Numbered from the stretch's first letter, positions 1 through 64,000 are shown. The stretch is DNA of 64,000 nucleotides from Bilabrum cf. latius (GCA_965178125.1 OZ237737.1:1612001-1676000), one strand, 5' to 3'. Numbers and translations: made by a program. The notes: a model not told the origin generated them from the sequence alone.

Positions 1-3000
1 CCGGGCCAGCAGAGGCGCGCATCCATCGCCCGCATGCAGCGCTCCACGCAGTCCAGGAGAGAGGCCGTGGCCAGGGCGGGAGGTTTGCAGGCGCTCGCTG
101 CGGTGGCGCTCGGCTCCACTGGCCTGCTTCGCAAGGCCATCAACGCTGTGAGCCTGAACCGTGCCAGGCCCAAGCGGAGGGTGTACCGGGCCCCGGGAGT
201 GGGGGTGCAGGACATGCCCGCGGTGGGCTCACCGGGCCGCATGTCGCCTGGCCGTTCGTCGTTTGCCGTGACAGGAGGCTCCCCGACCATCGGGCCCTCG
301 GTGTCCGGTGCGGTGGGCAGGGCGCCTGCCCTGAGTCCCGGGCGGGGGGGCAGGCCCCACCGCCACTCGATGCACGACATGTCCGGCCTCAACCTGACGG
401 CCGCGGCCATCCAGGCGCGGTCGGGGCAGGAGACCCAGCACTTGCTTGTAGCTGGCAGCAGCTCCAGCAGCACCGGCAACCAAGGGGCCAGGGAGCGGCC
501 CGTCTCCGGTGCTGCCAGGGGCCGCCGGGTCCAGCCTGGCTTCGTGGCGGGCCCCGGCGCAGATGGCCCTGCCGGCGCCGCCCCGGAATCTCGCAGCCAG
601 GGGGTGATGGTGAGCGAGTCCACGGTGGAGTACCTCAAGGGCCTCGAGGCGGTCGCGGGGGACGCGCTGGCCTGCGCCTCGAGGACGGAGAGCGTGCGGT
701 CCTTCCTGGTGAGCCCGTCGGTGGAGAGGGACCTGGACAAAGCGTGGCAGCACGCCCGTATCACGCCGAGGGCAGAGTCCACCGGGGCTGCGGCGGCTGC
801 GGCAACGGCTGGCGGCGCTAGGGGGACCTCTGTGGCTGGCCAGGACGGCCGTCCCGGCACTGCCGACAGCATCATTGACACGGGCAGGGGAGGCGCCTCG
901 GACGGGAGCAAGCCGGTGGGCGTGGCCCGGATCGACCCCTCCATGGCCCCCGTGTGTGTCCGCGCGGCCATCACCCTGGTGCGCACAAGCCGGGTGGGCG
1001 TGCAGAGCAGCGGGGCAGAGATCTTGGCCAGCCTCTCCGAGCAGGACGACCACCGTGCAGTGTTGCTGCAGCTGCCCACCGTGCCGCTGCTGGCCAAGCT
1101 GGCTAGCAGGCCGGGTGTGCTGCCGCAGGTCAAGGCGTTCTGCGCCAGGACGCTGCAGCACTGCTCGGCGGACAAGAGGCTCCTTGCGGCGCCCCCTGCT
1201 GAGGATGGAAGCGGCAGTAGCGGTGCGGTCGCTGGAGCCGGGTCTGGAGGGGAGGAGGGCAGCAGCAGCCCGGGCTTCAAGGCCGGGTCGGATGGCGCGC
1301 AGGGTGGCGGCAGCAGCTCCTCAATGGGCGCGAGCATCGTGCAGAGCATCCTCATGCTGCTGCCCGCCGCTGATGACGCCGATGAGGCCGACCAGAACGG
1401 GGAGGGTGCTGGCGACGAGGAAGACGAGGACGAGGAGATAGACGATCTGGAGCAGATCGAGACCGGTCCTCTCATGGCAGGAGGCGGCGCTGGGACGCCC
1501 AATCCGGGCGATGACACGCCCGGCGGGACCTCGTACTCGCCCTCGCCCAAGCCGGCCGTGCAGCTGCCACCCGAGGTGCTGGCCAAGCACAGGCAGCTGT
1601 TCCGGCCGCAGATCGCGCAGCTCCACGTGCCGCAGAGGGGCTGGAGGGACAGCAGCGTGGAGCTGCCGGCAGTGTTCGGGGGCCGCGGACCAGACGAGTC
1701 ATCGCTGGACGAGTTTGCCCAGTGTGCGTCTGGCCTGCTGTACCCAGCCAGCGTGGTGACTCGTCTGGTGGAAGGTGTGGAGCTGATGGAGCCCGAGGGC
1801 GGCACCAGTTCTGCTGGCTCCAAGTAGGCCGGCGTGCTTGCAGAGTCGTCTGGGATCTTGGGAGACGGGGAGGAGGGTAAGCAGGCAAGCGGAGTCGAAG
1901 CCGAGCAGGGGCAGGGCGAGGGCAAGGAAGGGGACGAGGACGACGACCTGCTGAGCATCCCTGGCGGCAGCGATGCCGGACTCGGGGACGATGGTGGGGA
2001 GGAGGACAAGCGCGCGGAGGGCAGCGGTGCGAAGGAACAGGACGAGCTGTGGATCGACCCGGACCGGGTCCCGCAGTGGAGCAAAGTGGCCGTCATGCTG
2101 GGCGCACCCCACCAGTTCGCCACGGAGGACACCGTGCCCGGTGGCGGTGCCAGGGCAGGGTCTCCCGGCAGTCGTCGCTCGCAGGGCGCCAGCTCCCCCA
2201 CGCCTTCCATGGCCGCACCCCCCCGGCTGGACACCAGTGCCCGGGCAGAGGAGGACCACAGCGGGCTGAGAACGGCCGGCACGGTCGATCTCCAGGTGGA
2301 CGTGGCGGGCTTCCGGGACGAGGACGACCTGGACCGCGAGCTTGAGGACAGCGACGGGGAGGGGTTGCAGCCAAGGAGGAGGGGCCGGCTGGGGTCCCGG
2401 GGCCTGCGATCCACCGCTGGCGGCATCGACGACGACGACGAGGACGGGGGGCAGCATGCAGCGCCCCCCACGACCGTGGACCAAGTGGCTTCTTGGCTAT
2501 CAGACGAGAGCGGGGTCCTTGGGTACGGCCAGCAGGGCGTGCTGTTCGACATCGAGGAGGCCAGGGACCACCTCATCGTGGCCGCGACATCGGAGAGGCT
2601 GGGCATGGGAGGGCTGGCCATCCGGTCGGCGCTGGGGCCCGCGCACACAGACACCGCGGGCACGGGGCCGGGCCACCAGACGGCCACGGCGGGTAGCGCT
2701 GGCGGCGGGATCATCGGGCAGGCGGAGGAGGCGCTGGCCCGTGTGGGATCGAGTCCGATCCTGTACGTTAACAAGCAGATGCTGCGGCACGCCAGGGGCC
2801 AGGGACCCAGGCCGCACATGCAGAGGCTCTTGGCGCAGGCTGCGCGAGCTGCGGCGGCGGGTGAAGAGCTGCCCGAGGGACTGGGCGTGTCGGGGGTGGT
2901 GATTGCAGGCGGGACAGCTGGGGGCACCATGCGCAGCGCTGCCTCGAGCCCCTCCCATTCTCGTGCGGCAAGCCCTGCGCACTCGAGCGCCGCAGGTGGT

Positions 3001-5799
3001 GGGTTCCATGCAGGGACTGCACCCGCATCTGACGACGATGACGAGGACCAGGACAGGCACCACGCCACGCTGCGGCTGCTCAGCGAGGGCCTGAACCCCT
3101 CCCGGCTGTCTCGGCCGGAGGACAACGTGCTGGTCCTCAAGCTGGGGGGCAAGATCGAGGAGGACGAGGCGGTGGGCGGCGCGGTGTTCCGGCCGGACGA
3201 GACGCAGGAGCGGCTAGAGGTGGAGCGCAAGGCCAGGGAGCGCCTGCCGCCTGCCGTCAAGAAGAGCCAGCCGAGGCAGTTTGGCCAGGCCCAGGCATTT
3301 GGCAAGGGGAGGCAAATCGTGCCCCCTAGGTCCCCCTTGCGCACCGACAGGTCGGCAGGCTCCGACGAGCGTGGCAAGAGCAGGCGAGCGAGGGCAAAGG
3401 GCAAGACCAGGTCACGGAAACCGCAGTGGAGGCCCGGGGGACCCGCTCAGGATCTCCGGCAACAGATGGAACAGCGCGAGAAGCGCCTGCAAGAGGCTGC
3501 AGCAGCGGCTGCGAAGAAAGAGGCCGAGCTGAAGGAGGCGCTGGGGTCCAACTACGAGGTGGCCAGGGGGCAGTACTTGGACAGCAAGTAGCGGGGGCGC
3601 AGGGGTGGCCAGGGGGAGGAGGAACCGCTGTCCCAGTCGCAGGTGCTGCTGCGGGCCGAGGCTTGGGGCAAGGAGAGGGGTCGCGCGGCGCAGCAGCAGC
3701 AAGAGGTGCGGGCGGGGCAGCGGCGCATGAAGGAGGCCGAGGACCGGTTCTGGCAGGCGGACGAAGGCAAGAAGATCGGATCGAGGCTCAGGCAGCAGCA
3801 AGCCCTCTCGGCCTACGTGGCTCCCTCGGCACAGATCTCGGGCCCAGCGCTAGGTGCCGCAGGGAGGGATGAGTTCAACCGAACGGCGCCAGCCAGCAGC
3901 CTGCGCGGGTCTGCGAGTGCGAGTGCGCTGTCTCGGCTGTCGCAGACGCAGCACAATCGGCTGTAGGCCAGCGTGGGCGCTGGCCGGCCGGGCGACGACT
4001 CGATCGGGAGCCAGTTCAGCCGCGCCGACCGCGAGCTGCTGGGTCCGGAACCTGGCCTTCCTCCCAAGCTGCAGCTGCCAACCCGGTCTCCTGGCCGGAC
4101 GGGCAGCGCTGGATTTGCTCTTGGTGCGGCATCTGCGGCGCGCGTTGATGCGCGCGCCTCTGCCAGTCGGCAGGGCGGGTCCCGGAGCGGGCTCGCGAGG
4201 GCAGGTGCGGGCGCTGTGCAAGGCCTTGGCCGCACGTCTCCCACTCCCCTGGGGCAGCCCCAGGGCCAGGGCAGGGGCAGGGGCCGGGGCAGGGGCAGAG
4301 GCAGGACGAGCCAGTCTAGGTCTCGCGGCAACCGGTCGGGTGGAGCACCTCCGCCTGGCCACCGAAGCCGTGTGAGTCGGCGCCAGCAGCAGGCACAGAA
4401 GCAGGCGTCGATGCGGCGGCGGGGCATCGACCCAGAGGCGCAGGCAAGGGAGAGGGCGCGGTTGGAAGAGGAGCGCATCCGAAGGGAGCGCATGCACGTG
4501 CCGGTGGAGGCCGGGGCCGTGAGCGGAGAGTTCGGGGATAGCACCATGAGGCGGCTGCTGGTGGCCACCGCTGCTCCCGGAGATGCGGCGGCTCGCGCGA
4601 GACCAGCAAGCCGCGGGGGCTCGTCGCATGGCGTGGCGCATCCGAGGACTGCGCCGGCCGGGGCGGCCCGTCCGCTGCTGACCGAGGCAGACGGTGGTCA
4701 GGTGAGGGAGCAGCAGTCGGCCGCGCCTCTCCCCGACCCCGGCCTGGTCCCAGACCCGCGGTCCTCGCTCCCTGCCACCACCCCCATGTGGAGAGGCACG
4801 CCCGTGTTCAGCGGGGCCGCCGATGCGGGCTCTCATGACCATCCCGCCGCGGGCGAGAGCCTGCAGACGGCCTCGCAGCGGTCTCGCGTGAAGCAGGCCC
4901 TGGCCGCGGGTGCAAGGGCCGGCTCGGCCTCCCCCACAGGCGACCAGGGGGCTGGCACTCCCGATGGCGGCGGCAAGCCTCCGTTGGTGGACCCGCTGAC
5001 CCGGTCCATGTCCTTCTCTCAGCTGCAGGGGGGCGAGAACCTTGCGCCTGTGGCAGAAGGTAATGAGGACGATGAGAAGGACAGCGCCAGGGGGGACGCT
5101 CCTAGCAGTGTGGCTGCGGCGCAATCGTCGCAGGGGCGTGGCGGCGATGACGTACATGGGCGCAAGGCCGACGGCGATGCCAAGGAGGACAAGGCCGACG
5201 GCGATGCCAAGGAGGACAAGGCCGACGGCGATGCCAAGGAGGACAAGGCCGACGGCGATGCCAAGGAGGACAAGGCCAACGGCGATGCCAAGGAGGACAA
5301 GGCCAACGGCGATGCCAAGGAGGACAAGGCCAACGGCGATGCCAAGGAGGACAAGGCCAACGGCGATGCCAAGGAGGACAAGGCCAACGGCGATGCCAAG
5401 GAGGACAAGGCCAACGGCGATGCCAAGGAGGACAAGGCCAACGGCGATGCCAAGGAGGACAAGGCCAACGGCGATGCCAAGGAGGACAAGGCCGAAGACA
5501 AGCCCGAGGTAGCTGCAGCCGCCGCCATCGCAGAGGCAGCTCCAGAAGGTGCCCAGGCGCTGATCGACGCAGTGCTGAGCGACCCAGCTGGTGCTCTCGC
5601 GGAAAAGCACGCCGAGGAGGACGCCATCGCTGCTGCTGCTGAGGAAGCGAGGGCACATGCTGCAGGGGGGCAGAGCGGTGGCAGTGCGGGACCCAAGAGT
5701 GCTGCGCAGCCTGGCATTTCGGCCGATCAGTTCTAGCAGCAGAAACTGGGAACTGAAGGACAGGCCGAGGGGAAGGGAGAGGGCAAGGACGAATCGTGA
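1..5799 (+). CDS. Large low-complexity hypothetical protein, 5'-truncated by the window edge; possible ARM-like repeat near 950-1170 and a C-terminal KA(D/N)GDAKED repeat
   Basis: Frame is open from position 1. ORFs 34..1827, 1834..3591, 3643..3966 and 3973..5736 share one frame and are separated only by TAG (1825, 3589, 3964, 5734). Read-through ends at TGA 5797-5799 (...DQF*QQKLGTEGQAEGKGEGKDES). Confidence 0.8.
5164..5487 (+). repeat. Coding minisatellite, 12 x 27 bp (aaggccRacggcgatgccaaggaggac)
   Basis: Directly visible: 4 units encode KADGDAKED, then 8 units encode KANGDAKED. Confidence 0.97.
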
Positions 5800-5946: not shown

Positions 5947-6906
5947 TCACCGCTTTCTCTCCCGCTTCCACCGAAACTGCGCAGGCAGACCACCCTTCGC
6001 GTCTGTAACTTTGACCCTGCTACCCTTCGTCCCCAGGGCCTTCTGGTGCTGCAGATGCGCCACCGCCCGCCCCAGCACCTTGGCTCGTCGGGTCCTGGCC
6101 TCTGCCTCCCGCACCACCTCCTGTCTGCGCACCGCCAGCTTGTCCGATGCTTTCTGACTCAGCCTGCGCCGCTTGGTGACCCGCCGAGTCTCTCGCATGA
6201 TAGATCGGGCTGCATCCTTGGAAATGGGGCCTTCACTGGAGCTGGGGGCCTCGGCTGAGGACGGGCCTGCGGACGCGCCGGGGCCAGACGAGGACTGCGA
6301 CCCGGCTCCGCTGATCACGCCGAGCTGCGCCAGACGCTAGGCGGCTTTCCCCTTGAACGCTGGAGCGTGTCGAATAGATGCAACTGCGGATTCATCGGCG
6401 ATCTGGACGTCGCCATGTGCGCCCACTTGTTGCTCGCTGCGCTTTCGTTTCCTGCCTCTCGCGATGCCTTCGTCAGCTCCTACGAATACTAGCCTAGTGC
6501 TCGGCTTCGGAGCGGCTGTGCCATGAATGCGATCTTTCAACCTCTATGCCTTCTTAAGATCCGCCTACCTCTTGGTGACTACGTATGCCTCGTCCTGTGT
6601 CTTCAGCAGTGCCAGCATGTCCTTGGACAACTTTGGCCCATCTCGCATAGCTTTGTGCACGCCATCCGCTGTTTGTCCCTTGACCATTCCAAAGTAAAAC
6701 TCATCTGGGTTGCGTTCCTGTGCTTTGCGCTGCAAGGCCTACTTTCTCTTCTGCTTCTTGTGGTGGTTTCGTGCTCTCTTAAGATAGTCCTTCTTTTTCT
6801 CGAGCAACCCAAGCTTTGCTCTGTGAGCTGGCTACGCACGTTCCTAATGCTCCCGAGATTGCACAGCATTTTTGAAAGCTGAAAATCCTCCAGATCCTTT
6901 CTGCAT
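5947..6906 (-). CDS. UTP11: U3 snoRNA-associated protein 11 (SSU processome), 319 aa with UAG=Gln
   Basis: ATG 6906 gives MQKGSGGFSAFKNAVQSREH*ERA*PAHRAKLGLLEKKKDYLKRA...RKAQERNPDEFYFGM...LLKTQD...FRWKRERKR, ending TGA 5947. Matches the Utp11 motifs ERxQP, LGLLEKKKDY, NPDEFY and TQD and the C-terminal WKxxRKR. Six in-frame TAGs: 6844, 6832, 6739, 6565, 6544, 6337. Confidence 0.95.
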
Positions 6907-7017
6907 GGTTCAATTTGCGTAGTTGCAGAAGCAAGAACCGGGGCACCACCGCAAAGTAACGTGCTGATTCCAACTGTTGCAAGACGTTGGGTGCATCCAC
7001 TCAAAACGCTAGTGAAC

Positions 7018-9167
7018 ATGGCCTCAATCGATGAAATGAAACAGTTAATGCTGAAGAGTTTGGAACATCGAGGTGTGCTGGGACAGATACGGGTTAGACA
7101 ACTGTTATTGGCTCTCTATTTCCAGTCATTGCTAGAATCTGTCAAGCGTTTCGATTTCCGTTCTCGTAACCGCAATGCACGAGCAGGCACAAGTTCGAGC
7201 TGCCGTATTCACGGCAATCGACGAGTAGGAGAGAGCGGACGGGGTTCACATGGAGAACCTGCGATTGTCAAAGCTGAAAGACTCCAAGCACGGTACGTTT
7301 CTGCAGCTGCAGGTATGGCTGGCATGATGCAACTAGTACTGGTACTGCTGATACAATCCCATGTGCAACACAATTCAATTTCGCAGGTATGCTGCTCTTG
7401 TCGATGGTCGACGACTTTTTAGGATTCTATGGCCTCAGTTACACCAGATCGTGCCTGCTGTCAGAAGCATAGATTGACGAGGAAACCGTGCAAGCTCGAC
7501 CGCAGATGCTGTCGCAACTGCCTTCAGCAAGTAATGATATGGATGATGGCAGCTACCCTGTCTTGCTGCGAGTGCTGGGAGCGGCGAGGGGGGTCGGGCA
7601 ATCTCAGCGCTCCGCTGCCGCTGCTGGCCCCGCCACGCCAGAGCGGTCTTCTGGGGCATTCAGGGGCGGTTTTCATGCCGAGTCCAAAACGCCTGATAGC
7701 CCAGATGATCCTTTGCGAAATACCGTTGGAAAAAAAGCATTTGGAGCCGGGCGGGCAGGTGCAGGATCAGATCTAGGACAGGCCGGGCAGGGCCCTCGGC
7801 TGCACAGCCCACCCGGTGCTGCTGCCACTGCTGGTGCGAGGGAGTATGAGGGGGAGGCAAGCGACATCCAGTATCGCGTTGGCACATCTCCAAAGACGCA
7901 TGGATCCTCGGGCACTGGAGCTGAGCGTGAGCGTGATGAGGGTGAAGGTGAGGGTGAAGCACCCCCTTCCGCGTCTGCAGCAATCGCCGGGCTGGCATCG
8001 CCGGGGGACTACGCCAGCGACTCGTTTGATGACTCCAGCGTGGGAGCAGGTGGCTCTCCGAGTCCGTATCGCCGTACTGACCGGGATCGTCGCGCCGCAG
8101 GCATTAGTGGTGGCACGGGCGCCGCAAGCGAAATGGGTGAGGACCCAACGGAGGATGGGTCTGGCGGTGCTGGTGCCGGTAGCAGGACGGCCCAGCTGGG
8201 TCTGAAGCTGGACCTTAGCTCACTTGGGGGTGGGTCTCCTTCTGGAGCCGGGCCTGAGGGAGATTCGGAGGATGCAGGTGAGAAGGAGAAAGAGAGGGGG
8301 CAGGGGCAGGGGCAGGAAGGGGCAGACGGCTCTGCTGCCACTACGGAGGAGGAAGAAGCTGCCTTGGCGGCCTAGCTGGCCCAAGTGCTGGGCACGAGCA
8401 AAGGACAGGTAAGTGGAGGTGGAGGGGGAGAGGGAGAGGGAGACGGGCCCAAGGCTGCTGATCCCCCCTAGCCGCCTGCATAGTCGGCCAAGCAGCTGCC
8501 TGCTGTCAGTCCGCCGGGCGGGGTCCCTGCCAGAGAGCAGCCGCCCAAGCAGGAGCCTGGGGCACATGAAGGAGGCGAGGATGGCGATGAGGATGACGAT
8601 GATTATGGGGACGATGACTATGACGATGATTTCGATGACGAGGAGGAAGTGCCGGATGAAATTGAAGACGAGGAAGAGGAAGGTGCAGCCGGTGGAGCGG
8701 GCAGCGGCGCGTTGGGCCAGGCTGGGGGCAGCAGCAGCAGATAGCGCTCGCCTGGTGCTTCTGGTGGCATGCCCGACGACAATGACCTTGCCCTTTCCCT
8801 TGGGGAGTCTCGCGACCTGGCTCAGTCGCTGGACGGTGATCTGTCCAGCAAGGAGGGAGAGGGCGAGGGCGAGGGCGGAAGCAAGGGAAGCGGGGCCTCG
8901 TCCTCTGAAGAAGTTAGGGACAGGGCAGCGCACGGGCAGGGGCTCAGCCCGGCGGGCTTCGGGGCCAGCCGACCTGGTACTACTAGCAGCGGCAGCGGCG
9001 TCAGCCATGCTGCGAACAATGGCCGGGAAGCAGAAGATGATGGGCCCCCCATCCCCGCGGGCAGGCTGGTGGAGCTGGTCGGGGACTTGCAGACAAGCAC
9101 CGTCCTGGAGAGCGAGAACCCGAGGTCGGCTGGGTTCGTGGAGGTGCCCAGAGGCGGGGGGGACTGA
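7018..9167 (+). CDS. CEP43: FOP/FGFR1OP-family centrosomal/basal-body protein (LisH + FOP dimerisation domain, long low-complexity tail), ~653 aa; exons 7018-7092, 7187-7292, 7387-9167
   Basis: Spliced N-terminus MASIDEMKQLMLKSLEHRGVLGQIR|AQVRAAVFTAIDE*ERADG...KHG|MLLLSMVDDFLGFYGLSYTRSCLLSEA*...YPVLLRVL matches FOP. Two 94-nt GT-AG introns. TAGs at 7226, 7470, 8373, 8469, 8481, 8742; stop TGA. Confidence 0.82.
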
Positions 9168-9330: not shown

Positions 9331-10410
9331 TCAGGTGGCCAGCTCTGGGTGGGCTGCCTCCACTGCATCGGCGGTCCCGTTGATCGCGGCACACGCGCCG
9401 CCCAGCTCCAGGTCCCACGTAGCCAGCGTGTCCCTGGCCCCTTGTCTGAAGTCCAAGATGCCCTTGAGCTGGTCGATGCCTGCCTCGAGCCGGCCCGCTG
9501 CGATCATCGAGGCCGCCACCTTCTCGGCGTCCTCCGTGCTGCTGGTGTTGATGATGCGGGCCAGCGAGTCCAGGCGGATGGTCCTGTAGACCGCCGAGCA
9601 CGCCGCCACGTTGTGCTCTTGCACGGCCCGGTCCAGTACCGTGGTTGTTCCCTCGATGCGGGCGTCCTGGTGGTCCGCCAGCAGTGCCCTGAACGTCTCC
9701 ACGTCCTCCTTGCGGATGAGCTGCTCCCTGTACATCTTCTCCAGCATGGCGTACTGGGGGATGCCCTCGCTGCGGCTGTCCTTGTAGATCTTGCCCATGA
9801 GGCGCTGCCGCTGCGGCCCCGCCCTCTCCAGGATGACGCACGTGGCGGCGTCCGCCAGCAGCTTGGTGCGCTCCATGGCCACGATCAAGGGGTCTCTGCT
9901 CAGCTCGTAGAACAGAGACGCCGCCTGCTGGAAATTTCGCCTGGCGTCCTGTACCTTGGCCCTGCACACTCTGTATCGCAGCTTGGTTGCGGCATCGTCC
10001 GACGACGACATGCAACGCGCGGCCTTCATAATGAAAGAGTCCGCGTTGCCAGAATCCTCCGCCTGCAGGAAATTCTCCGCCAGAGCAACATTATAATAAA
10101 ACTAATCCTTGGCTGGGACCGCTAGGGCCCGCGTGAACGCCAAAATACATCCCTGCACGTCAGACTTGGCCCATTTAGAATCGTAGAAAAACTTTCGCAC
10201 CTCCCAGTCCTCAGCTCCGACGGCTTCTCCGTGTGTTCGCATAGCCTCTAGGGCTGGCGTGCACGCAAGCTCGACTACTGCGGGCTTTGTTTCAATAAGT
10301 CGCCTGAGGTGTCCTACAAAGTGCATCACGATCTTCTTGACTGTCCCAACATCACCAAGAGTGCACGCATGCGCTACAAGCTTTCCAAGAGAATCACCAT
10401 CCTCCTCCAT
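9331..10410 (-). CDS. COPS4: COP9 signalosome subunit 4 (PCI domain), 359 aa
   Basis: Motifs LRYRVCRAKVQDARRNFQQAA, ILERAGPQRQRLMGKIYKD, LEKMY, TVLDRAVQEHN, AEKVAASMI..GRL...IDQ. ORFs 10102..10410 and 9331..10029 are joined in frame through TAG 10102; stop TGA. Confidence 0.9.
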
Positions 10411-10741
10411 TGCAAACTAATCAATCAACTCTTCGAATTTCTCGCGCTTGGCATCGTTTGACGGCAGCGTATCCACCTGCGATGGAGACGACCAACGCGA
10501 GAACGGGGCATAGACGCTCAGATAGAGATAGACTTCTTCAAAGAACTCCAGCGCGACTCAGCATTGTACATATCTGCTATCTTATTTCATACCTGGGCAA
10601 TAGCAGCGTCAACCATTTCAGTGGGCTTGAATATCTGCAGATGAAAAGCAAATTTTATTTTGGCTATGGTAGCGTGTAATTTAATCGAAAATCAGATCAC
10701 GATGTTGCAGCAAATCCTGCCCAAACTAGGCCGTTCACGCC

Positions 10742-14821: not shown

Positions 14822-15027
14822 TTGCCACACAATCAGTCATCGGCCAACGTAGGGGGTTTTCGATTGCACGTAAAGCACGCACTACTTACTGGTTAAGTCA
14901 GTGACCTAGTTGTGTGACAGCAATCACTCGTTCAGGAGCTGGTTGGGCCATTTCTTTCAAATAGCCCTGGCACGGCTCATTTTGAATTTCTGTCATGTCC
15001 GCTTCGGGCAAAAAAAGCCTTACAACC

Positions 15028-41346: not shown

Positions 41347-41506
41347 TGCAAAATTGGCGGGAGGGGAGCGCTGTTTCGAGCTCCCTGGTCCATTCCGAGT
41401 CAACACAAAAGTTTTGAAATCATCGTGCATTTTGTTGTTTATTGCGTCGTTGATGTTATATGCCATGCTGGCACCATCCTGGACAACACAAGCAAGCCGC
41501 TCTTAC

Positions 41507-52500: not shown

Positions 52501-53779
52501 GCCGGGGATGCTGCTGCCGGTGCCTGCCGCTGCGGCACCGGCGCGCTGTCTGCTGCCTGACCTGCACGTGTCGTGGGGGCAGCATTGCTCTGTTCAGCCC
52601 GCTGCTTCCTCTCCGCTAAGAGCCGGTCTACAAGGGCGTCCCGCTCCACGCGGCTCATGCCCAGCCGGCTCGCGGCGCTGCCTGCCAGGCCCACGCTGCT
52701 GCTGGCCCCCTCTGCTAGCCTGCCTGCCGGTGACGATCCGGTCGTTGAGACGGCAGCAGCCCGCGATTGAGATGCACTGCCATCATGGTCTGCCCCACCC
52801 GCCGTGCGTGCAGCACCGGAATCGCCCCGGGCTTGCACCAGGCCATCCGCGGCTGACAGCGCAGCGCCCAGGGCTGCATCGGCTGCCTCTGCGGATGCAG
52901 CCCGCCTTCCAGCCTCGTCCGACCTCGGTTCGACACCACCAGCTTCAAAGTCCCTGCGGCCAGCGCCCTGCACCAGCGAGGCAGGCCCCGAGCCACGCGT
53001 CGCCCCGTCGCCGTCCTCGCCCGGCAGGGAGCCCGTTGCTCTGGCGCTGGCGGGCTCGAAGGCTGGGGCGGAGGAGCGCCCGCCGGTGCGACTCAATGCA
53101 TCGCTACCTTGCAGTGGATGGCTGGCATCCGACGCCCCACTCGCGCTGTCGAGCCCGCTGCGATCGGCGGCGCCCTGGGTGTCTCCATCGTCGGCTGCCA
53201 TAGCGCTGAGCTCAGCAGCAGATGCCGACCCCTTTCCAGCAGACGACTCAAGGAGATGCCGAGAACCTGGCATACCTCCGATTGTGGCTCCTTGCAATGC
53301 TCCAGGAGCCGCAGTTTGCAGTCTTTTTTCGCGGTCTGTCGCGAATCCGCGAGCCTGTGCGCGCTCGGACGCCAGCTGGGCCAAAATCTCCTTCCTTCGC
53401 TCTTCCTGCGATAGTGTTAATAATTCGTGTATGATCTTGAGTGCACATGCATGCTTTTCTGATCTGTCTAACTCGGTATTCTCCGACCGAAATGCTACAA
53501 TTTGCACCGTGCATGGTTGGTCTTACTGAGATCACTGGTCTTGAGGGACGGCCGGTTCCTCCAGTCGGTGTTGGGATTTGCACCACATCTTCTGCTAAAC
53601 AAAGAAAACTTGCACCGAAAAGGGAACTTATTGGCATTGTCTGTGGCCTGACTCCGCAGACTCGAATCACCGGCCATCTTACCCTCTTTTGGGTCAGTGC
53701 TTCGATGTTTACGAGCCAAAACAGATGTTGCTCGTTGTATTTCGCGTTCTACTAGCTCGAGGGTGTTGTCGGGTTCCAT
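49557..53779 (-). CDS. Charged coiled-coil protein with ~9 (C/H)TFxPxI-type repeats, ~1,336 aa; exons 53779-53683, 53591-53527, 53405-49557
   Basis: Repeats HTFSPRL, CTFKPRL, LRFQPAI, HSFQPRI, CTFKPDI, CTFRPTL, CPFQP, CTFQPKT. One TAG at 50661 in a Gln-rich context (RARQQ*RALQQAKQ). Two GTAAGA...GCAG introns (91 and 121 nt) restore an ATG; stop TGA. Confidence 0.78.
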
Positions 53780-53895
53780 TTCAGAAACTAATCGCGCAAT
53801 GTTCGATTTTGCCAACGGTAGGGAAGTTGCGAGTAGTTACAAGCCGCTCAGTACGATATTAATTGCCTCGGCGATTGAGCCACAGCCACTGCAGC

Positions 53896-56019
53896 ATGCC
53901 ACGGACTCTTCTCGGAGGCATGAAACGTGGCAGGGCGACTTTTGATCCTACTAAAGGCAGTGGGATGCGGCCGAGTTATGAGAAGCTGCCACAGAAGCGC
54001 TCCAGACAACCAGCATTCTCCATGGCGTCTCACGCTCTGAGGATCGCCAAGGTCCTCCAGCATAAGCTTGGAAGCACTCATGCGATCATGAACGGAGTAG
54101 CAGACCACGTGGAATTGAAAAGGGTCGCCAAGATTGGTGTACCAGCGCTTAGTTCTGGCGGTACACCAGTTGCTAGTGCAGCATCGCCGGCTGTGCGGGC
54201 GGTAGAACCGCACCCGAAAATGGTGGGCAGCCAGGGCGCGTTCGACCTTGTGCACGAGTTTCTGTCTGAAGTTATTTGTGGCGGCGCATCAGACTCTCTT
54301 CTGCTCGTCGGGCCTCGAGGCAGCGGCAAGACGGCCGTCCTAGAGTGCGCGCTCCGAGCAGTTGCCGACGAGGCGAGCAGACGTGGATCCAGCGCCCAGC
54401 AGCCCGCGGCAGCTGGGTCGGAAGGACCCCTGCAGGTCGTTCGTCTGCACGGAAGCACAGTCGGCGACGATGCGTCCGCAGTGCGGGAGATTTCTCGCCA
54501 GCTGGCCCTGGACCAGGAGGTAGAGGCCGCCGGGCTGCAGGCCCAGGCCCATTCCGAGGGCTCCTCGGGGGAGCGTGGATCCGCCACTGGGGCAGCCTCA
54601 CGGGGACCGGGAGCAGCTCGGCGGCAGCTGTACGAGCAGTACGTCGAGTTCGTGGTGGGGGCTCTGCGGGACGGGAGGCGCGGGGGGCGGCCGGTGCTGC
54701 TGGTGATCGACGAGTTCGACGTGTTCGCGAGGGGCTCGAGGCAGACGCTGCTGTACACGCTGCTGGACCTGACGCAGTCGCACTCGGCTCAGTTCGGGAT
54801 CATCGGCGTATCGGCTCGGCTGGACGTGGTGGAGCTGCTGGAGAAGCGGCTGCGGTCCCGGTTCTCCCACCGGCGCGTGTTCCTCGGCCCCCCTGGATCG
54901 GAGGAGGAGTGCCTGCAGCTGGCAGCGCAGGGGCTGGGCTTGCATGTGCTGGAGGAGGATGGGTCCACGTCACAGGGCGAGGAGGAGGGCGAGGAGGAGG
55001 GTCGAAGCAAGCGCAGGCGCGCTGGGGCGGCCGGCCCTGGCCCAACCTGCGTTGCGGGGGTGGACTGGCCTGCGTTTGCCAGCCGCCACAACACGCAAGT
55101 GGCTCAGGCGCTGGGGAACAGATAGGTGCAGGATTTCCTGCGGCGCTGCTACCGGCTGGGCAGATCGAGGGGCTGGATATGGAGGTGGCTGCGGGTGGCA
55201 GTGGCGGAGGGGGCGAGGGCTTGCCGGGAGGAGGAGAGGAGGAGGGGGCGGGGACAAGGACAAGGGCGAGGGGGGAGTGGGGGGGACAGCGGGGCCTCGG
55301 CATTACAGAGGGCAACTAGCAGCAGCAAGGCTAGCAGTAGCAGCAGCAGTAGCAGTAGCAGTAGTAGCAGTAGCAGTAGCAGTAGCAGTAGCAGCAGCAG
55401 CAGCAGCAATAGTCCTGCTGATCAAGCCGGCAGTGATGACCAAGCCCTTGTGACGAGTGCGGTCCTTCTCCGAGCCGCGGAGCAGTGCTGCCAGGACCCG
55501 CGACTGCTGCTGGCCAGCTCGGCACCCATGGGATCCGCCATGCTGCTGCTGGCCATGGCACGGGTGGAGGACTCGCTGGAGGCCGGGGCCACGTACACGC
55601 TGGCTCGCGCGCATCACGAGTACCTCGCGTTCGCGGGGCGGGAGGGGGCCAGCTCGCGGCCCATCGGCATGTCCCTGGCCGTGCGCGAGCTCGCGCGGCT
55701 GCTGGAGCAGGGTCTCATTGAGACGGTGGGTGCAGCGGCGCACGTGGCTGCCACCGGTGTGGTCCCCCTCGAGGGGGGTGGGGCGGGCGTGGCGGGGACT
55801 GGCAAGGGGGGTGCAGGCAAGGGCAAGGGCAAGGGCAAGGCGGGGGCTGGCGCGGGGAGGACCAGGATGATGGGTGCTTCGGATGCGGCGGCCGTGCCTC
55901 TGGAGCTGCAGCCGCTTCGGCTGGCCGTGGAGCCAGTGGCCCTCCGCGCTTTGGTGAGGGACGGGCGGCTGCCGCTGCCCTCGGATGCGAAGAACTGGGC
56001 TCTCGGTGGGGGATACTGA
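53896..56019 (+). CDS. ORC4: Origin recognition complex subunit 4 (AAA+), ~707 aa
   Basis: Walker A SLLLVGPRGSGKT, Walker B VLLVIDEFDVFA, then RQTLLYTLLD and RLDVVELLEKRLRSRFSHRRVF. One TAG at 55123; stop TGA. Start 53896 or 53920. Confidence 0.9.
55318..55407 (+). repeat. (AGC/AGT)n coding microsatellite, poly-Ser inside ORC4
   Basis: Directly visible; about 28 Ser codons in the ORC4 frame. Confidence 0.9.
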
Positions 56020-56425: not shown

Positions 56426-57421
56426 TCAATTCCTGAAGTGGATGATCTGGTGCGAGGGCGAGAGCACCTCGGTGTGTTCCTGGCACTGGAGCTTCTCGGC
56501 GGGCTGCGGGTTGACCTGCCACTTGGGCTGCACGGACTGCCCCTGTCCCTCCAGGATCATCTTGGTGAACTCGCAGGGCTTCTCGGGGTACGTGGAGCAC
56601 CCGTTGCACCCGTAGCACTCGAGGGTCGTGTAGGCCCACGGCTGCTTGGCCAGCCGGGGGTTGGCCGCCTGCTGGGTGGTGGTGGCTCCCGTCTGCCGAG
56701 AGGTGGACACAACGGCCCAGCTCTCGGGCCCTGTCCGGGTCATGTTCCCGAAGATGACGTCCCCGGGCTGCGCCCCGATGGGCTCAGAGGCGAGGGCTCC
56801 CGCCTTGAGCGTGACGTACCACGACCGCACGGCCCAGCCGGACTGGCCGAACCCGGATGGGTACTGCAGCACTGGCTGAATGATATCGAAATCAGCCTAT
56901 GGCTCAGGATCGACCTTTGGGATCCAGTCGACGTTCTGGAGGCCGGTGAACAGGTAAAGAACCTGAGGATCGGCAGAGGGCGCGTCCGGCACGCTGAAGT
57001 AGCCTGTGAAAATGTCGAACGTATCGGGGCTCTCCGTCTTATACGCAGTGTACTGCTCCCAGCCATCATAATCCTGCGAAAAAATCCAATCATACAAAGG
57101 AGCTACACATGGGAGGGCAGCAGCAATGTGATGACGCACTGGAACTGATCATCGAAATCTGTGGCTCACTGCCGGCAGCCCGCCAAGCATTGGGATCCCG
57201 CCGAGGGATGGCGCGCAATGCGGGTACTCGAATTGGGTGCCATTAGGGAAGGTCAAACGGATGGTAGACTCCAGCTCTTCCACGTTCGTTCCGCTTGGGA
57301 TCTCGCGAACGCAATCTTTGCGAACGAGGCCGACCCGAGGGACAGGCACGTGAGTCTCTGCGAACCGGGAAGCAGCTGCCAATGCACCGAGTGCGGCAAC
57401 AATAGAGGTAAACGTGCGCAT
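56426..57421 (-). CDS. Secreted beta-rich hypothetical protein (~299 aa); exons 57421-57170, 57073-56426
   Basis: Signal-like MRTFTSIVAALGALAAAS. One 96-nt phase-0 GTGAG...CGCAG intron. Conserved-looking FSVPDAP...LYLFTGLQN...*ADFDIIQPVLQY...W...SWY. TAG at 56897; stop TGA. Confidence 0.8.
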
Positions 57422-57570
57422 GCTGCGATGGATTGTGGTGTAGTGCGCAGAGCAGCGCGCGGCAGTGCAAATATTGGATTCGGATCCTCCCGGCGGGCAG
57501 TCCGACTCTTTCGTAGGTTCACAAGCGTCGCTTTTCACAAGGCTCGATAGCAATCAAGCGAATTCTTGCC

Positions 57571-59067
57571 ATGATGATTCTTCTCAATGTGGCAGCACTG
57601 GCGGCTGCTGGCTTGCTTACAAGCGCCAAGGCTGCGTTCGATCCGCCGATCCCGAGCAAGCAGCAGTTAAAGTGGATGGATTGGGAAGTAGGAGCCATGA
57701 TAACCTACTCGATGCAAACGTACAGTCACAGTATGAAGCAGGGCGACGTCGTCCCTGCAACTCGGTTCACGCCCGTGCAGACGGCCTTCACAGATACTTG
57801 GGTCGATGCCGCACGTTCGTTCGGGGCCAAGTACGCGGTTGCAGTGTTTGACCATTTCAGTGGCTTCGTCGGGTGGCCCACCAATGTTTCTGGGTACGAG
57901 TACGGCGTTCGACAGGCGACAGGCTGGCGCGGCGGGAATGGGGATTACGTTGCAGACTTCATTTAGAGTTGCCAGGCGGGGGGAATCGCTCCCGGAGCGT
58001 ACTACAGCCTCCACAACAACTGGTACATGGACGTGGAGAGTTTCCACACCAAAGATCCTTCCAAGCAGCAGGCCTACAACGCGATCGTGATGCAGCATGT
58101 CCGGGAGCTCTTCGACCCGGCTGGCCCGTACGGCGCGCATTGGGAGGAGGTCTGGTTCGACGCGGGCATCGGGGCCACAGAGTACAACGACACTGCGCCG
58201 GTGGGGCCGCTGGTGGACCAGCTGCAGCCGGATTCCATCCTGCACTCGACCTCGCCCTACGCCTCCCGCAACGGCGTGCGCTGGGTGGGAAACGAGAACG
58301 CGATCACCCCGCTGCCCAACTGGCTCTCGGTGCAGGACGCGGCGCAGTGCGGGCAGTCCACGCTGGGCGTCCCGCAGGGCACAGTGTTCTGCCCTCCGTC
58401 CTGCGACACCGTGCTGCGGGAGCACTACTGGTTCTGGAAGAACGGCACCGCGGGTACCATCAAGTCCACGCGGGAGCTCGTGGGCGAGTACGTCTCATCG
58501 GTGGGCAGGGGCTGCACTCTCATCATGAACATCAACCCGGACCCCACGGGGACGGTGCCCGCCGCTGACGTGCAGGCATACGAGGCCTTTGGACGGGCCG
58601 TGCAGCTGCTCTTCGGCCCCCAGTCCCGTGTGCAGCAGTGGGACAGCCCAGCCCTCTCCCCGCAGCCATGGGCGGGCGGGCTGCTCGGCGTGGAGCTGGC
58701 CGTGCAGGGTGGGGGAAGCGGTGCGCTCACCAACGCGTCCATCGTGCTGCAGGAGGACCTTGGAATGTTCGGGCAGCGCGTGGCTGAGGTGAATGTCAGC
58801 GTGCTGGTCTAGCAGCACAAGCAGCAGCAGCGCCAGCACGAGGCTGCTGCAGGGCACACGGAGGGCCAGCAGTGGTAGAGCTGGTCGCAGACGAGCACCA
58901 TCGCGCACAAGCGGATCCTGCTCATGCCGCAGGCTATGGGTGGGGCCGACGTGCAGGCCATTCGCGTGTCGATCAAGCCCGTCGAGGGTACCGCGGCGCC
59001 CGGTGCGCTGCGGAGCGTCTCGCTACAGAACCACAGCGGCGAGGATGCCCTGCGTGTGCTGCCGTGA
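57571..59067 (+). CDS. Secreted alpha-L-fucosidase (glycoside hydrolase family 29), 498 aa
   Basis: Signal peptide, then PSKQQLKWMDWE, DHFSGFVGWPT, GDYVADFI*SC, nucleophile motif EVWFDAG, VRWVGNE, CDTVLREHYWFW, SVGRGCTLIMNINPDPTG, and the C-terminal beta domain QEDL..FGQRV...W*SWSQTSTIAHKRIL. TAGs at 57964, 58810, 58876; stop TGA 59065-59067. Confidence 0.9.
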
Positions 59068-59363: not shown

Positions 59364-60630
59364 TCATGTCCTGCCGTCTGAAGACTCGTCTTGGCTACTG
59401 CCCGCCGCATGACCCCCGCCGGCAGTGGGCTTGCTCCCCTGCCCTGCGTAGTCCTCCGGGGCCCCTTCCCTCCTCCCGATGGCGTCGTGTCTCATCTTCT
59501 TCCTCTGCGCCCGCACCTGGATCTTGAGCATCTCGAAGGCCAGCATGCTCACCCCGAACAGTGCCCCCACAACGACCATGCGGGGCACCAGCCCGGCCCA
59601 CAGAGCCATGAAGCCCTCTGCCTTGGTCACCTTCTTAAAGCAGTCCACCAGGCCGTCGTACTTGGCCGCCTGCTTGCCCTGCACCCTCGTCTTGATCACG
59701 TCCATGGGTGTCACCAGCCCGCTGCCCAGCGAGCCCGCCACCGCGCCCGCCGTGAAGGTGGCCAGCACCTGCTGCGTGTTTGACAGCTCCGTCTGCCCCG
59801 CTGGCAGCTGCGCCTTGAACCTCTCCTGGATGGCCGCCGCCGTCATGGCGTACCCGGGGAACATGATGACGGAGAACGGTATGTCACGCAGCAGGGTGAT
59901 GTGCACCCCGCGGTACAGCCCCGTGAGCCCCAGCTCCGACACAGCCTCTATGGTGGTGCCTGTGGCCGACTCCTGCATGTGAATCTTCGATACTTCCATA
60001 GGATTCGTCGCAATGCACTGCGCGAGCCCAGCACTCGCCCCCGCCAGCACCTGCTGCAGCACAGAGAGCTGCGACCCGTGCCCGGCCCGCTGGTTGCTGG
60101 CCGTCATCCAGTCCCTCATGATGTCGTTGACGCCGAGCTTGATGGCCTTCTCGGGGGTGACACCGATCAGGTTGGGGAACAGGCCCCGGTAGAACGCAGC
60201 GGCCCTGCCCTCGCTGTAGACCAGCCGGGCCACCTGCATGGGACCCATGCCTGCAGGGGGCGGAGGCGAGGCGAGGCGAGGGGAGTTGGGGGGAGAGGTG
60301 AATGGAGGGGGGGGGGGGTTCGGTGGGGTGCCAGTGGGGCGGGGAGGAGCGGTTTCGGAGTGGGAGGGGGATGTAACAGGCAGGCACTTGTCAGTGGAAC
60401 AGAGAGCCGAACGGCAGCCGCTCGCCCCCACGTATTGCTCGCCGCTCACCGGTGCCCATCATCCTCGTCTTGATCGTGTCCATCGGGAAAATCACGCTTG
60501 TGCCTATCACACCCGCGAGCCCCCCTACCACGATCTTGTACTGCCAAGCCACTGGTTCATCCCGAAGCTCCGACTTCTAACTCCCTGCCTCCGGGGCATC
60601 TTTCACTAGTGGCGCCGCTGGCTACACCAT
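59364..60630 (-). CDS. Mitochondrial carrier (SLC25; glutamate or aspartate/glutamate carrier-like), ~355 aa; exons 60630-60450, 60250-59364
   Basis: Three carrier signatures (FPMDTIKTR, NPMEVSKIH, TPMDVIKTR) plus YRGLFPNLIGVTPEKAIKL and LLRDIPFS. One 199-nt GTGAG...GCAG intron. TAGs at codons 3 and 18 (60622, 60577); stop TGA. Confidence 0.9.
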
Positions 60631-61231
60631 AACGTGCAAAGAGTCGCGTGAAGTGCCACCGCACGCCAAATTGCAGCTGCAAGAGACTTATCCGATCTAC
60701 GAGCAGCGGGCGAAAGAACTACACATACCAATACATTAGCATCGCTCAGTTGGTAGGGATGAAAATCACTGCCAGTGGGCAAACATTTCGGCCGCACCAC
60801 CTCAAGAAGGGCGCGTATAACGCAGATGTCTGGAGGGAATTCAGGCCACCTTTTCGCCCGAAAATGATGTAAAAACAACGTAATCATGCATACATTGGGG
60901 GTGGGAGGACATCAACCTGAGAAGGCACCATATACAGCGCAAGCGGTTGTGGCCCAAGTCATCAGGCGCTTGAATGCACAAGAAATAAGCTTAACTGAGA
61001 GGAATCAGTAAGGCCGAGGCTACCTTACCAAAGTATACGGATAAAAGCAGGCGAAAATTCGAATAAAACTGGAAAATGCACCCGAAATTGCCCACAGATC
61101 ACTCCCCGCGAGTTCACTTCGGCACATGCAGCGCATTGTAGCGCACGCACTCATCCGTTCGGCATCGTCATTCAATCCTGTGCACCACCCCAAATCAGCG
61201 GATCAGCACCCGCGTCACTAAGCATACCACA

Positions 61232-61720
61232 ATGTCTAGTATTTCAGCATCCTAGAGGCTTGCTCGAGGGACCAGAACCAACACCGTTAAGAGTTATTTT
61301 GGTGCGCTGGACGACCCGCGAATCGCAGATGAGGGGGCCGATGTAAAACCGAAGCCGTACAAACGATCGGTAGGAGCGTATGCCGCGGATGCATTGCAGC
61401 ATGGCGAGCTCATGCCCCCGAAGCCGGCGCCAGAGCCGGAAGAGGTCCCACCACCGGAGGAAGAGGACCCGAGGGCGGGCTTGCCGCCACCGTCAATGAC
61501 GACTTCTCAGTCCGCGAAGGAATACATCGAGGCAATGAAGAAGCACACAGCTGTTTCATATGACCCAGAGGATCGCTTCAGCGAGCCGCCAACCTCAAGC
61601 ATGGTGACGGGCTGGGGCGCGCGCAAGGCCCCGCGCGAGCGCTGTCGGCACCCAAAGGTGATCTCAGAGGTGGCCAAGGCGCATGCTTAGCTCATGGCCA
61701 TGCACTCCCAGCACAGCTGA
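61232..61720 (+). CDS. Small protein (~162 aa) with a P.ERF..P.TSS...GW motif, resembling FAM183/SPMIP-type flagellar microtubule inner proteins
   Basis: MSSISAS*RLARG...DPEDRFSEPPTSSMVTGW...AKAHA*LMAMHSQHS then TGA. TAGs at 61253 and 61688. Start and family assignment are tentative. Confidence 0.55.
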
Positions 61721-62650
61721 GGGGGTGAGAGGTGGATGCGCCCCCCTTTCCCTTTCCCCATCCCTATACGCTCGCTAGCACTTGCACTTGCAATGGCAAT
61801 GGCATCGGATGCAGTCGCAGCAGTGGGCCACTGGCAATGGCAGTAGGTCTGGGGGGGGAAGAGCGATCGTCCGCCCTTAGCCCTAGCCCTTCTACGATAG
61901 CTAGAGAAGACCACTGGTCTCTTGCCTTGAATCTGCCGGTAGTGCTAGTAGTGCTAGTGCATGGTGCGGGTGCGGCGTGGCGGGCCAGCCCTCAGTGCCG
62001 ATGGACGCGGAAAGTTGGTGCTAGTAGTTTGCAGTGCAGTCCAAGCTCAGGTATGAAGGTAGTTGCAGGCACGTAAGGACAGCAGCCTGCAGCAGCTCAC
62101 ATATCTGCATGCGTGCACGGTGCATCTGGGCTTGCTTGCTGGCTAGCTGGTTGGCTGCCTTGCTTGCTCTTGCTGGCCGCACCAATCTAGGGTTGATTGC
62201 CTCTCGATCGGTCCGGATGGTATCGGCTCGGCCATGCACCGCGGACAATGGGTTTGCGGGCATGCAGGTGCCAGTGGTCGCTGCGGTGAGCCGCCGCAGC
62301 ATCGAGAAGAGCAGCGCGCACTGAGACGTTGCCGGTCGGTGCGTGCCGCCGGTGTCTCTTCGTGTATATCGTGCATGATTGCATTCGGAACCCATCGAAG
62401 ATTCGCTCGTACTCATTTTCGAAGGTCAAGCGCGCCACGAAAGGCAGCAAGCCACTCGCACCAGCTGCACCACTCCACCGCGCCTGCTGAGGGGCAGCCC
62501 CAGGGGCAACTCTGCTCAACGAACCTTGCGTACCGAACGTTCTCCTTCGGGACAACTGCAACTTGGGGTGGTGCAGGCCAATTAGTCGACGAATCGCCGC
62601 ACGTCTCACGGAATCTGGTAGAATTTTGTTGATCAAGTGGATTCTGTAGG

Positions 62651-64000
62651 ATGGCGTCAGAATCCAAGAGCCAGAATCTGTTTGATTCCGACAGCGAAAA
62701 CGAGACCAAGGGGACAGGGCTGCGCATCAACCAGCGCTATGCTCGGCATTTCGACAAGAGCAGGCGAAGGATGGAGCTCGTCCGTGCCAGACACCTGGGT
62801 CTAGATGTGGACTCGCAGTCGTCCTCTGGCGAGGATGGCAGCGGCTCGTCCAGCGATTCGTCCCTCGATACGGAGGACGAGGAAATGGCCTACAGCAACC
62901 CGCTCACAGACATGAAGATTTTGAGGACCATTCAAGCGATCAGAAACAGAGACTAGCGAATCTACGACCCCAAGGTTGCGTGGTTCGACGGAGAGACCGA
63001 TGCGCTGGGTCCGGGCGCCCTGCCGGCCGAGCGCGAAGGGGACGGCAGCGACGGCGACGAGCCGCTGGCCGCAGCGGGCCGGCGCAAGCGAGTGACGGCC
63101 CGGGATCTCGTGCGTGAGCAAGTGCTGAGCGCGGCTGCCGATGGCCGGGAAGACGCCTTTGCCTCGGACAGCGAGGGCGAGGGCGAGGGCGAAGACGAGG
63201 GCGGCAGCGGCAGCGGCCCCGCCCCCGGCGCTTCCTCTTCTTCCTCCGCGTCCAGCAGCGCCCCCGCCCCTCGCCGCGGCCTGCCCCGGCAGAGCGACAT
63301 GGACGCCCTCGCCTACGACGAGGAGCAGCGGGCCATCCGCGCCGCCTTCTTGCAGTCGGCCGAGGACACGGCTCGGCTGGCGGCGGAGAGCGGGAGCCGC
63401 GCCAGGGAGGGGCCCCCGGAGCGGCGGAGGGAGGACGCGCCCGCGGCCACGGGGCCCAGCCAGGTGCGGTCGGTGGCGGCGGTGCCCCGCGCCGTCCTGG
63501 AGGCGGGTGGGAGGGACGTGGCCGACCTCGTGGGTGGGGGCTCGGCCGGGGCCGGGGCCGGGGCCGAGGACGACGGGGACGGGGCGAGGGACGGGCTGGG
63601 CGGGCTGCTGCGGCCCCGGCGCAAGTCGGCCAAGTCGCACCGGTCCGCCATGGCGCTGAGCGCCCAGCGGTGGCTGGAGTCGTCGCAGGGCAGGGAGGAG
63701 CTGAGGAGGCTGGGGTCGCAGGACCGGCGGCAGCTGGCGGCCTACCTGCAGGAGGGGCCCAGCGACGAGGGGGACGCCTTCTTGAGGGCCTTCCTGCTGG
63801 GCGGGGCCTGGCGCAAAGAGCAGCCGGGTCAGGCGGGAGGCCGTGGGTCAGGCGGTGGGGGCGCGTTCAGGGGCGGTGGGCGCGCGGGCGAGCCGGGGGT
63901 CGGGGGCGATGGTGATGCGGACGAGGACGAGGACAAGGACGAGGACGAGGAAGACGACGGAGGGATGGAGTCGTCCTCTCTGCTTCGCGCCAAGAACAAG
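62651..64000 (+). CDS. KRI1: KRI1 homolog (40S biogenesis), 3'-truncated by the window edge
   Basis: LRINQRYARHFDKSRRRMEL, ILRTIQAIRNRD*RIYDPKVAWF, KRVTARDLVREQVL, AYDEEQRAIRAAF, DEGDAFLRAFLL. After TAG 62954 the frame stays open to the window end. Confidence 0.85.

Follow-up and report, generated by a model that had tools for sequence, protein, structure and literature searches.

Is UAG translated as an amino acid in the nuclear genome of Bilabrum cf. latius and, if so, as which one? The question is raised by a stretch of 64,000 nucleotides (GCA_965178125.1 OZ237737.1:1612001-1676000; hereafter the window), in which an earlier examination of the DNA without reference to databases (the sequence-only reading) had counted about 93 in-frame TAG triplets in 17 of 18 gene models and proposed that UAG alone is reassigned throughout the genome, most likely to glutamine. 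The window has a G+C content of 63% and carries housekeeping genes of eukaryotic type on both strands. The analysis presented here indicates that UAG is an ordinary sense codon in these genes, supports a change limited to UAG, and points to glutamine as its meaning.

Reading frames across the window

With the standard stop codons the longest open reading frames (ORFs) of the window measure 1148, 954 and 676 codons. Reading through TAG alone lets the ORFs grow to 5371, 2131, 1933 and 1756 codons; reading through TAA leaves their lengths almost unchanged, and the longest stays at 1148 codons. The 17 stop-to-stop candidate ORFs contain 94 in-frame TAG, with at least one in 16 of them. The 16 gene models obtained by trimming (17,728 codons) hold 86 TAG, 0 TAA and 0 TGA in frame, and the mitochondrial-carrier gene is the only model that lacks TAG; one extra in-frame TAG, in exon 2 of the FOP-like gene, comes on top of the 86. 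Off frame, the same models hold 243 TAG, 75 TAA and 512 TGA, corresponding to densities per 1000 triplets of 6.9, 2.1 and 14.5, compared with 4.85, 0 and 0 in frame. The in-frame pattern of TAG versus TAA and TGA is far beyond chance. The gene models are as follows.

1..5799, plus strand: large low-complexity protein, open at the 5′ end, without a Pfam family; 4 in-frame TAG, TGA end.
5947..6909, minus strand: UTP11 (Pfam Utp11 3e-57, PDB alignments, 120 homologues); 6 in-frame TAG.
7186..9167, plus strand: FOP-like centrosomal protein (weak FOP_dimer match, 1.7e-4); 6 in-frame TAG, TGA end.
9331..10557, minus strand: CSN4 with PCI domain (PCI 5.4e-13, PDB CSN4 3.6e-45); 2 in-frame TAG, TGA end.
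10928..13520, plus strand: AP-3 beta subunit, AP3B (Adaptin_N 5.6e-87, PDB AP3B1 3e-129); 2 coding TAG, TGA end.
14986..20253, plus strand: 1755-codon ORF of unknown family; 7 in-frame TAG, one of them 5 codons before the TGA.
20808..36920, minus strand: giant 5370-codon ORF; 38 TAG from stop to stop, 36 after trimming; TGA then TAG at the end.
38833..41502, minus strand: 889-codon coiled-coil-like ORF; 9 in-frame TAG, TGA end.
41507..47899, minus strand: SKI2-type helicase (DSHCT 7.9e-53, DEAD 2.5e-22, PDB Ski2 7.9e-177); 6 in-frame TAG.
49557..53522, minus strand: 1321-codon Arg/Glu-rich ORF; 1 TAG, within a Gln-rich stretch; TGA end.
53863..56019, plus strand: ORC4 (AAA_16 and ORC4_C, PDB ORC4 3.5e-28); 1 in-frame TAG, TGA end.
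56426..57148, minus strand: peptidase-A4-like ORF (weak match); 1 TAG, TGA end.
57412..59067, plus strand: GH29 alpha-L-fucosidase (Alpha_L_fucos 2.4e-21, PDB alignments); 3 coding TAG, TGA end.
59364..60458, minus strand: mitochondrial carrier (Mito_carr 4.8e-42); 0 TAG, TGA end.
61067..61720, plus strand: FAM183/SPMIP11-like axonemal protein; 2 coding TAG, one of them 10 codons before the TGA.
62633..64000, plus strand: ORF named KRI1 in the sequence-only reading, open at the 3′ end; 1 TAG.

The Pfam and PDB matches span TAG positions in Utp11, AP-3 beta, SKI2, CSN4, ORC4 and GH29. In a per-gene regression the TAG counts follow the use of A/T-ending codons generally, indicating that TAG acts like a non-preferred codon. 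A metagenome scan with AP3B returned only distant relatives, contigs L001 (31%) and L002 (43%); L001, from an unrelated eukaryotic metagenome, gains no ORF length from TAG read-through and uses the standard code. Taken together, these data establish UAG as an ordinary sense codon in the genes of the window.

The earlier tally of TAGs was therefore essentially right in its total, although a few of the triplets are noncoding: the TAG at ORF codon 18 of the AP3B frame falls within the intron 11179-11268, and the first TAG of the fucosidase frame and that of the FAM183 frame precede the probable start codons. The names that had been given to UTP11, AP3B, SKI2, ORC4 and CSN4 are borne out by Pfam, as is, more weakly, that of FOP, whereas the ORF called KRI1 gave no match in Pfam and PDB searches and its name is unverified.

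A repeat in ORC4, (TAGCAG)/(AGCAGC) at 55318-55412, is translated in the true frame as a long run of Ser; read in a different frame it yields 12 off-frame TAG resembling poly-Gln and is a trap for TAG counts.

UAG codons in spliced transcripts

Seven public runs cover most of a 7.7-kb test stretch, and four of them were compared over 5900-25800: X1, which is DNA-like, and X5, X6 and X7 from two further studies, making three studies in total. None of the listed runs is on record as RNA. Seven exact GT..AG joints occur in X5-X7, two in FOP, four in AP3B and one in CSN4 (CT..AC on the plus strand), and because these joints are present there and absent from the DNA run X1, we infer that X5-X7 hold spliced transcripts. 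The FOP joints, seen in X5-X7, connect 7091 to 7186 and 7291 to 7386, giving exons at 7186-7291 and 7386-9167 and an earlier exon that ends at 7091; the six TAG of this gene include the one in exon 2. The CSN4 joint, seen in X6, connects 10474 to 10591 (intron 10475-10590), and the AP3B exons are 10928-11026, 11119-11178, 11269-11322 and the main exon, 11436-13520.

The X5-X7 contigs match the window with no other letter over UTP11 (5944-6904), CSN4 (9282-10601), AP3B (11436-13754) and three segments of FOP (7186-7291, 7386-8294 and 8325-9222). These identical spliced contigs cover 16 TAG codons: six in UTP11, six in FOP and two each in CSN4 and AP3B. The 16 UAG codons thus persist in mature messenger RNA (mRNA), and are neither miscalls, nor edits, nor introns. 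The sequence-only reading had named the persistence of UAG in mRNA as a check on its proposal; at these positions the outcome is free of editing, splicing and CAG miscalls, and the DNA reading frames and the spliced contigs agree on UAG as a sense codon.

Some features of the contigs stand apart from the TAG positions. The CSN4 contig of X5 (9282-10601) runs through the intron that is spliced in X6, by intron retention or because DNA is present in the run. At 13260-13514 and 18100-18800, Ser/Asp/Gly-rich low-complexity coding repeats, the transcript contigs have many odd long-range joints and loose ends; these are most likely assembler chimeras. Across 13868-15195 the depth of transcript contigs falls to about 1-4, with a DNA depth of 12-22.

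The amino acid encoded by UAG

A single base change in TAG can give a codon for Lys, Glu, Gln or Leu. Alignments of 120 Utp11 and 120 AP-3 beta homologues, in which X stood for TAG, provided eight deep TAG columns in the two genes. The main residues in these columns, counted over 120 homologues, are Lys 102; Gln 117; Lys 49 and Gln 21; Gln 45 and Ala 42; Glu 102; Asn 108; Lys 91 and Gln 24; and Gln 83. The column with 117 Gln is that of the Utp11 motif ER.QP, where the sequence-only reading had placed a TAG at a conserved Gln; the Gln is invariant in the motif as a family feature, and neither Lys nor Glu ever occurs in the column. Its second such claim, for the AP3B motif YDQNYDIRDR, likewise holds, at column 1095 (Gln 83/120). 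The other AP3B column, 917, with 91 Lys and 24 Gln, has a weighted Gln frequency of 0.70 among the 30 nearest homologues and Gln in all ten nearest relatives shown. For the third motif, in FOP, the residues are present in the sequence as described, but PDB searches with exon 2 and exon 3 gave no homologue.

Each column was scored with substitution profiles for the individual residues, derived from these alignments. Summed over the eight columns, the log-likelihood places Gln first under raw, sequence-weighted and nearest-30 scoring. Lys falls behind Gln by 2.06 natural-log (ln) units with sequence weighting and by 2.58 with the 30 nearest homologues; Glu falls behind by 3.0-4.45 ln units, and by 3.77-4.45 with weighting or the nearest 30; for Leu the gap is 13.5 ln units.

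Variation within the giant gene provides a second line of evidence. Over 21370-25236, all four runs, including X1, contain contigs 95-99% identical to this gene, with mostly synonymous differences, which represent a second haplotype or a recent paralogue. Among 40 listed of the 80 differences, 29 are synonymous, nine are nonsynonymous and two are CAG-to-TAG changes, at giant-gene codons 5146 and 4191; on these 40, the synonymous-transition rate makes two CAG-to-TAG events 49 times more probable than the nonsynonymous rate does. In P0121, a fragment of a relative's protein, three TAG columns hold Gln, Asp and Gln, in a pair in which ordinary Gln is conserved at 2/9 positions. The frequency of Gln beside TAG (0.076) is close to that beside Gln (0.070), over a background of about 0.044, and TAG is also found inside Gln runs; the Gln-run contexts quoted in the sequence-only reading are all present.

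The strongest competing reading is that UAG is indeed a sense codon and stands for lysine or glutamate; both AAG and GAG differ from TAG at a single base, and examples of UAG=Glu are a ciliate and Blastocrithidia. The evidence that speaks for this alternative weighs against glutamine. Lys is the commonest residue in three of the eight deep columns (102, 49 and 91 of 120), Glu in one (102/120) and Asn in one (108/120), and unweighted scoring leaves Lys only 0.26 ln units behind Gln. Among relatives of the giant protein, the closest fragment, P0246 (83% identical), has Glu and Leu at two TAG columns and P0247 (46%) has Glu at one, while a CSN4 TAG column holds Lys in one solved homologue, at a weakly aligned edge. 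The six TAG columns of an internal repeat of the giant protein contain Glu, Thr, Gln, Asp, Ser and Ala, although this repeat was set aside as a residue test since, at 50% identity, it is too diverged. The variant evidence, in turn, covers 40 listed of the 80 differences. Beyond the choice of residue, the TAGs 5 and 10 codons before the TGA of the 14986..20253 ORF and of FAM183 may be places where termination occurs at TAG, the genome-wide scope is an extrapolation from 64 kb, and the proposed transfer RNA (tRNA) and eRF1 mechanism is carried over from known codes, neither gene lying within the window.

Against lysine or glutamate stand the ER.QP column, the weighted and nearest-30 gaps, the fact that both TAG-touching variants are CAG-to-TAG (likelihood ratio 49), the Gln at two of three TAG columns in P0121 and the TAGs inside Gln runs, and we regard this alternative as improbable. 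Several other comparisons do not discriminate. The residue ranked first by a neighbor-composition classifier changes with window size among Met, Lys, His and Leu; in PDB alignments the ORC4 TAG lies outside the aligned parts, as do the CSN4 TAGs apart from the weak edge already described; and the one aligned TAG of SKI2 is at the edge of a variable insert, opposite Asn in yeast. The sequence-only proposal of glutamine is supported, Gln being first in column likelihood on few columns and by a moderate margin. Judged from only eight deep columns, glutamine is the best-supported meaning of UAG, and we consider it very likely to be correct. The pattern of TAG positions fits young codons, with a silent origin from CAG together with replacement at tolerant sites.

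Termination at UGA and the status of UAA

Each of the 15 complete genes closes with TGA and none with TAA, a feature on which the sequence-only reading had not remarked. Comparison of UTP11 and SKI2 with solved homologues puts the TGA after the final aligned residue: it comes directly after the conserved C-terminus of the family in UTP11, and also in SKI2, which aligns with PDB Ski2 to the last residue. Codes in which all three stops are reassigned or context-dependent are those of Condylostoma, Blastocrithidia and Amoebophrya; sense use of UGA or UAA of that kind is not seen here, with 0 TGA and 0 TAA in frame and TGA closing 15/15 genes.

A second alternative is the common code in which both UAA and UAG mean glutamine (NCBI table 6), with UAA too rare to appear in 64 kb. 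TAA, with 284 occurrences over the six frames, is less frequent than either TAG or TGA, and its use as a stop is likewise unseen; given an off-frame TAA:TGA ratio of 75:512 (13%), the absence of TAA from 15 gene ends has a chance of about 0.13 and is uninformative on UAA termination. The A-ending member of comparable codon pairs is, however, used at 14-18% (CAA 126/787, with CAA:CAG at 126:661; GAA 186/1048; AAA 99/559), and if TAA were synonymous with TAG about 16 in-frame TAA would be expected beside the 86 TAG, compared with none observed in the 17,728 codons (P=3e-7). The same genes hold 75 TAA off frame, and TAA read-through does not lengthen the ORFs. Because in-frame TAA is absent where about 16 are expected, UAA is not a sense codon, and the change is therefore one of UAG only rather than the code in which UAA and UAG are both Gln; table 6 is very unlikely to apply. 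These observations support the UAG-only reassignment that the sequence-only reading had put forward.

Hardly credible at all is an artefact or a lack of translation (CAG miscalls, edited or spliced TAGs, pseudogenes or low-level readthrough), for which nothing favorable was found, given that four runs from three studies agree at every compared TAG, that spliced contigs have no joints at TAGs, that the 29 synonymous versus nine nonsynonymous differences among those listed denote purifying selection, and that 38 TAG in one 5370-codon frame are impassable by leaky readthrough.

Placement of the organism and its relatives

For both AP3B and UTP11 the top named matches are oomycetes and ochrophytes. 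The AP3B tree, with 41 rows, places the query inside a 12-row clade with a Shimodaira-Hasegawa-like approximate likelihood ratio test (SH-aLRT) value of 99; the clade also holds Bicosoecida sp. ms1 (P0012) and unnamed sequences, and adjoins oomycetes and brown algae. This single gene tree suggests a provisional placement among the stramenopiles, and the source organism is probably a heterotrophic stramenopile, which agrees with the earlier opinion that it is neither Iotanema nor a ciliate. The explanation taken as a whole, which we think highly probable, is that the window comes from the nucleus of a flagellated eukaryote, rich in GC and with few introns, whose affinities lie with bicosoecid-like stramenopiles and in which UAG alone is reassigned, most likely to glutamine. 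For Cafeteria, a bicosoecid, a G+C content of about 70% and an average of 1.7-1.9 introns in each gene are given (PMC6972860); the source genome likewise combines high G+C with few, short introns.

A search with a 1200-residue piece of the giant protein found nine database relatives, all of them Met-started fragments of 111-284 residues, and the Utp11 relative P0121 lacks both conserved ends of the family. Such short fragments (P0121 and P0246-P0254) look like gene calls made with the standard code, which suggests that at least one related species may share the variant code. If the code is shared by relatives, its origin could be bracketed within a small clade.

Proposed mechanism

We propose that cytoplasmic ribosomes read UAG as a sense codon, most likely as glutamine, with UGA as the terminator. 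Among anticodons, CUA alone can read UAG without also reading UAA, according to the Iotanema study (PMC5304391). The predicted agent is a tRNA-Gln(CUA), probably derived from tRNA-Gln(CUG) by one base and incapable of pairing with UAA; by analogy with known codes, it would be accompanied by an eRF1 with weakened UAG recognition and by a glutaminyl-tRNA synthetase accepting the new anticodon. ARAGORN and Rfam found no tRNA gene in the 64-kb window, where Rfam detected no other RNA either, and eRF1 is not encoded within it.

A more far-reaching proposal, which we hold to be rather unlikely, is that this is the first variant nuclear code in stramenopiles, with UGA as the sole working terminator and UAA effectively unassigned. 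GC pressure would in that case strip UAA from reading frames and gene ends, eRF1 would no longer need or read UAA and UAG, and tRNA-Gln(CUA) would capture UAG. If true, UAA would represent a natural intermediate of the "codon capture" route, in a natural eukaryote running on one stop codon. A sense UAG has practical consequences: standard-code gene callers fragment these genes, and annotation, phylogenomics and metagenome binning need the right code.

Other features of the window

The giant ORF has no Pfam family over its N-terminal 2,700 of 5,370 codons, the part scanned, and a homologue search with residues 3190-5369, in shorter lengths, gave nothing that scored. The two copies of its internal duplication (codons 3004-3300 and 3308-3603), each of about 300 residues, are 50% identical, and its C-terminal stretch appears hydrophobic by eye in translation. 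RCC1-like repeats are found just upstream of it, at 36722-37399. The large low-complexity protein (1932 codons) has a KADGDAKED-type repeat near its C-terminus, encoded by a 27-base tandem repeat at 5163-5493 (12.3 copies, 99% identity). A 332-codon ORF at 13838-14836 on the minus strand has 0 TAG, no family and low G+C at third codon positions, and may not be a gene. Spacing is compact between SKI2 and its neighbor, the SKI2 stop (TGA, 41507-41509) lying about 40 bases from the next same-strand ATG (41466).

The best solved relatives of the GH29 fucosidase are named by their depositors as "putative alpha-L-fucosidase" and "glycoside hydrolase" (5.2e-39); we take them to be bacterial. The gene may have been acquired by horizontal transfer, or the matches may simply mirror the choice of proteins that have been crystallized. 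A scan of prokaryotic genomes with the fucosidase gave no confirmed match. A perfect 46-base tandem repeat (59036-59206, 3.7 copies) starts in the last fucosidase codons and repeats the TGA and the bases that follow.

Comparison with known codes

Only a few eukaryotic lineages are known to have changed their nuclear code. Our literature search, with most subscription journals outside it, found none reported in stramenopiles, and is consistent with the undescribed origin suggested in the sequence-only reading. If the code arose independently in a stramenopile-like flagellate with a GC-rich genome, this would be a new data point at the level of a supergroup; it would bear on how UAG uncouples from UAA, and would test whether GC pressure, with TGA dominant and TAA rare, paves the way.

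Split meanings of UAG and UAA are rarer again, with examples in Iotanema, a single rhizarian and a small number of ciliates (PMC5304391, PMC11687900). A common related change, in which UAA and UAG both mean glutamine (table 6), is listed for many ciliates, hexamitin diplomonads, oxymonads, some ulvophytes and an aphelid (PMC5304391, PMC11687900). It resembles the present case in the reassignment of a stop codon to glutamine and in the UGA terminator, and differs in that UAA is sense there, whereas here it is absent from the 17,728 in-frame codons. The UAG=Leu systems, in a rhizarian (exLh) and in a TARA ciliate clade (PMC5304391, PMC11687900), share the restriction to UAG and a predicted tRNA with a CUA anticodon; they depart from our case in the residue, leucine being far behind glutamine in the column likelihood.

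The closest parallels are the codes in which UAG alone means glutamine. Two phyllopharyngean ciliates, Hartmannula sinica and Trochilia petrani, combine UAG=Gln with UAA as the firmly preferred stop (PMC11687900); as here, glutamine is assigned to UAG alone, which occurs widely as a sense codon, but those organisms are ciliates that stop at UAA, whereas the source of the window is not a ciliate and only UGA is seen as a stop. In Iotanema spirale (Metamonada, Fornicata), UAG=Gln is combined with UAA and UGA stops, UAA being the primary one (PMC5304391). The likeness extends to the UAG-only assignment to glutamine, on the best evidence here, with UAA not a sense codon (the pattern of NCBI table 15), and to the same predicted mechanism, a tRNA-Gln(CUA) that would not read UAA and a change in eRF1. 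In contrast to the primary role of UAA in Iotanema, the terminator here is UGA in 15/15 genes and UAA in none; furthermore, Iotanema belongs to an unrelated supergroup and is represented by a transcriptome only, whereas the present evidence comes from stramenopile-like, GC-rich genomic DNA with introns. Codes with UAG=Gln and UAA retained are already known; the window probably adds a UAG-only assignment to glutamine from a new lineage.

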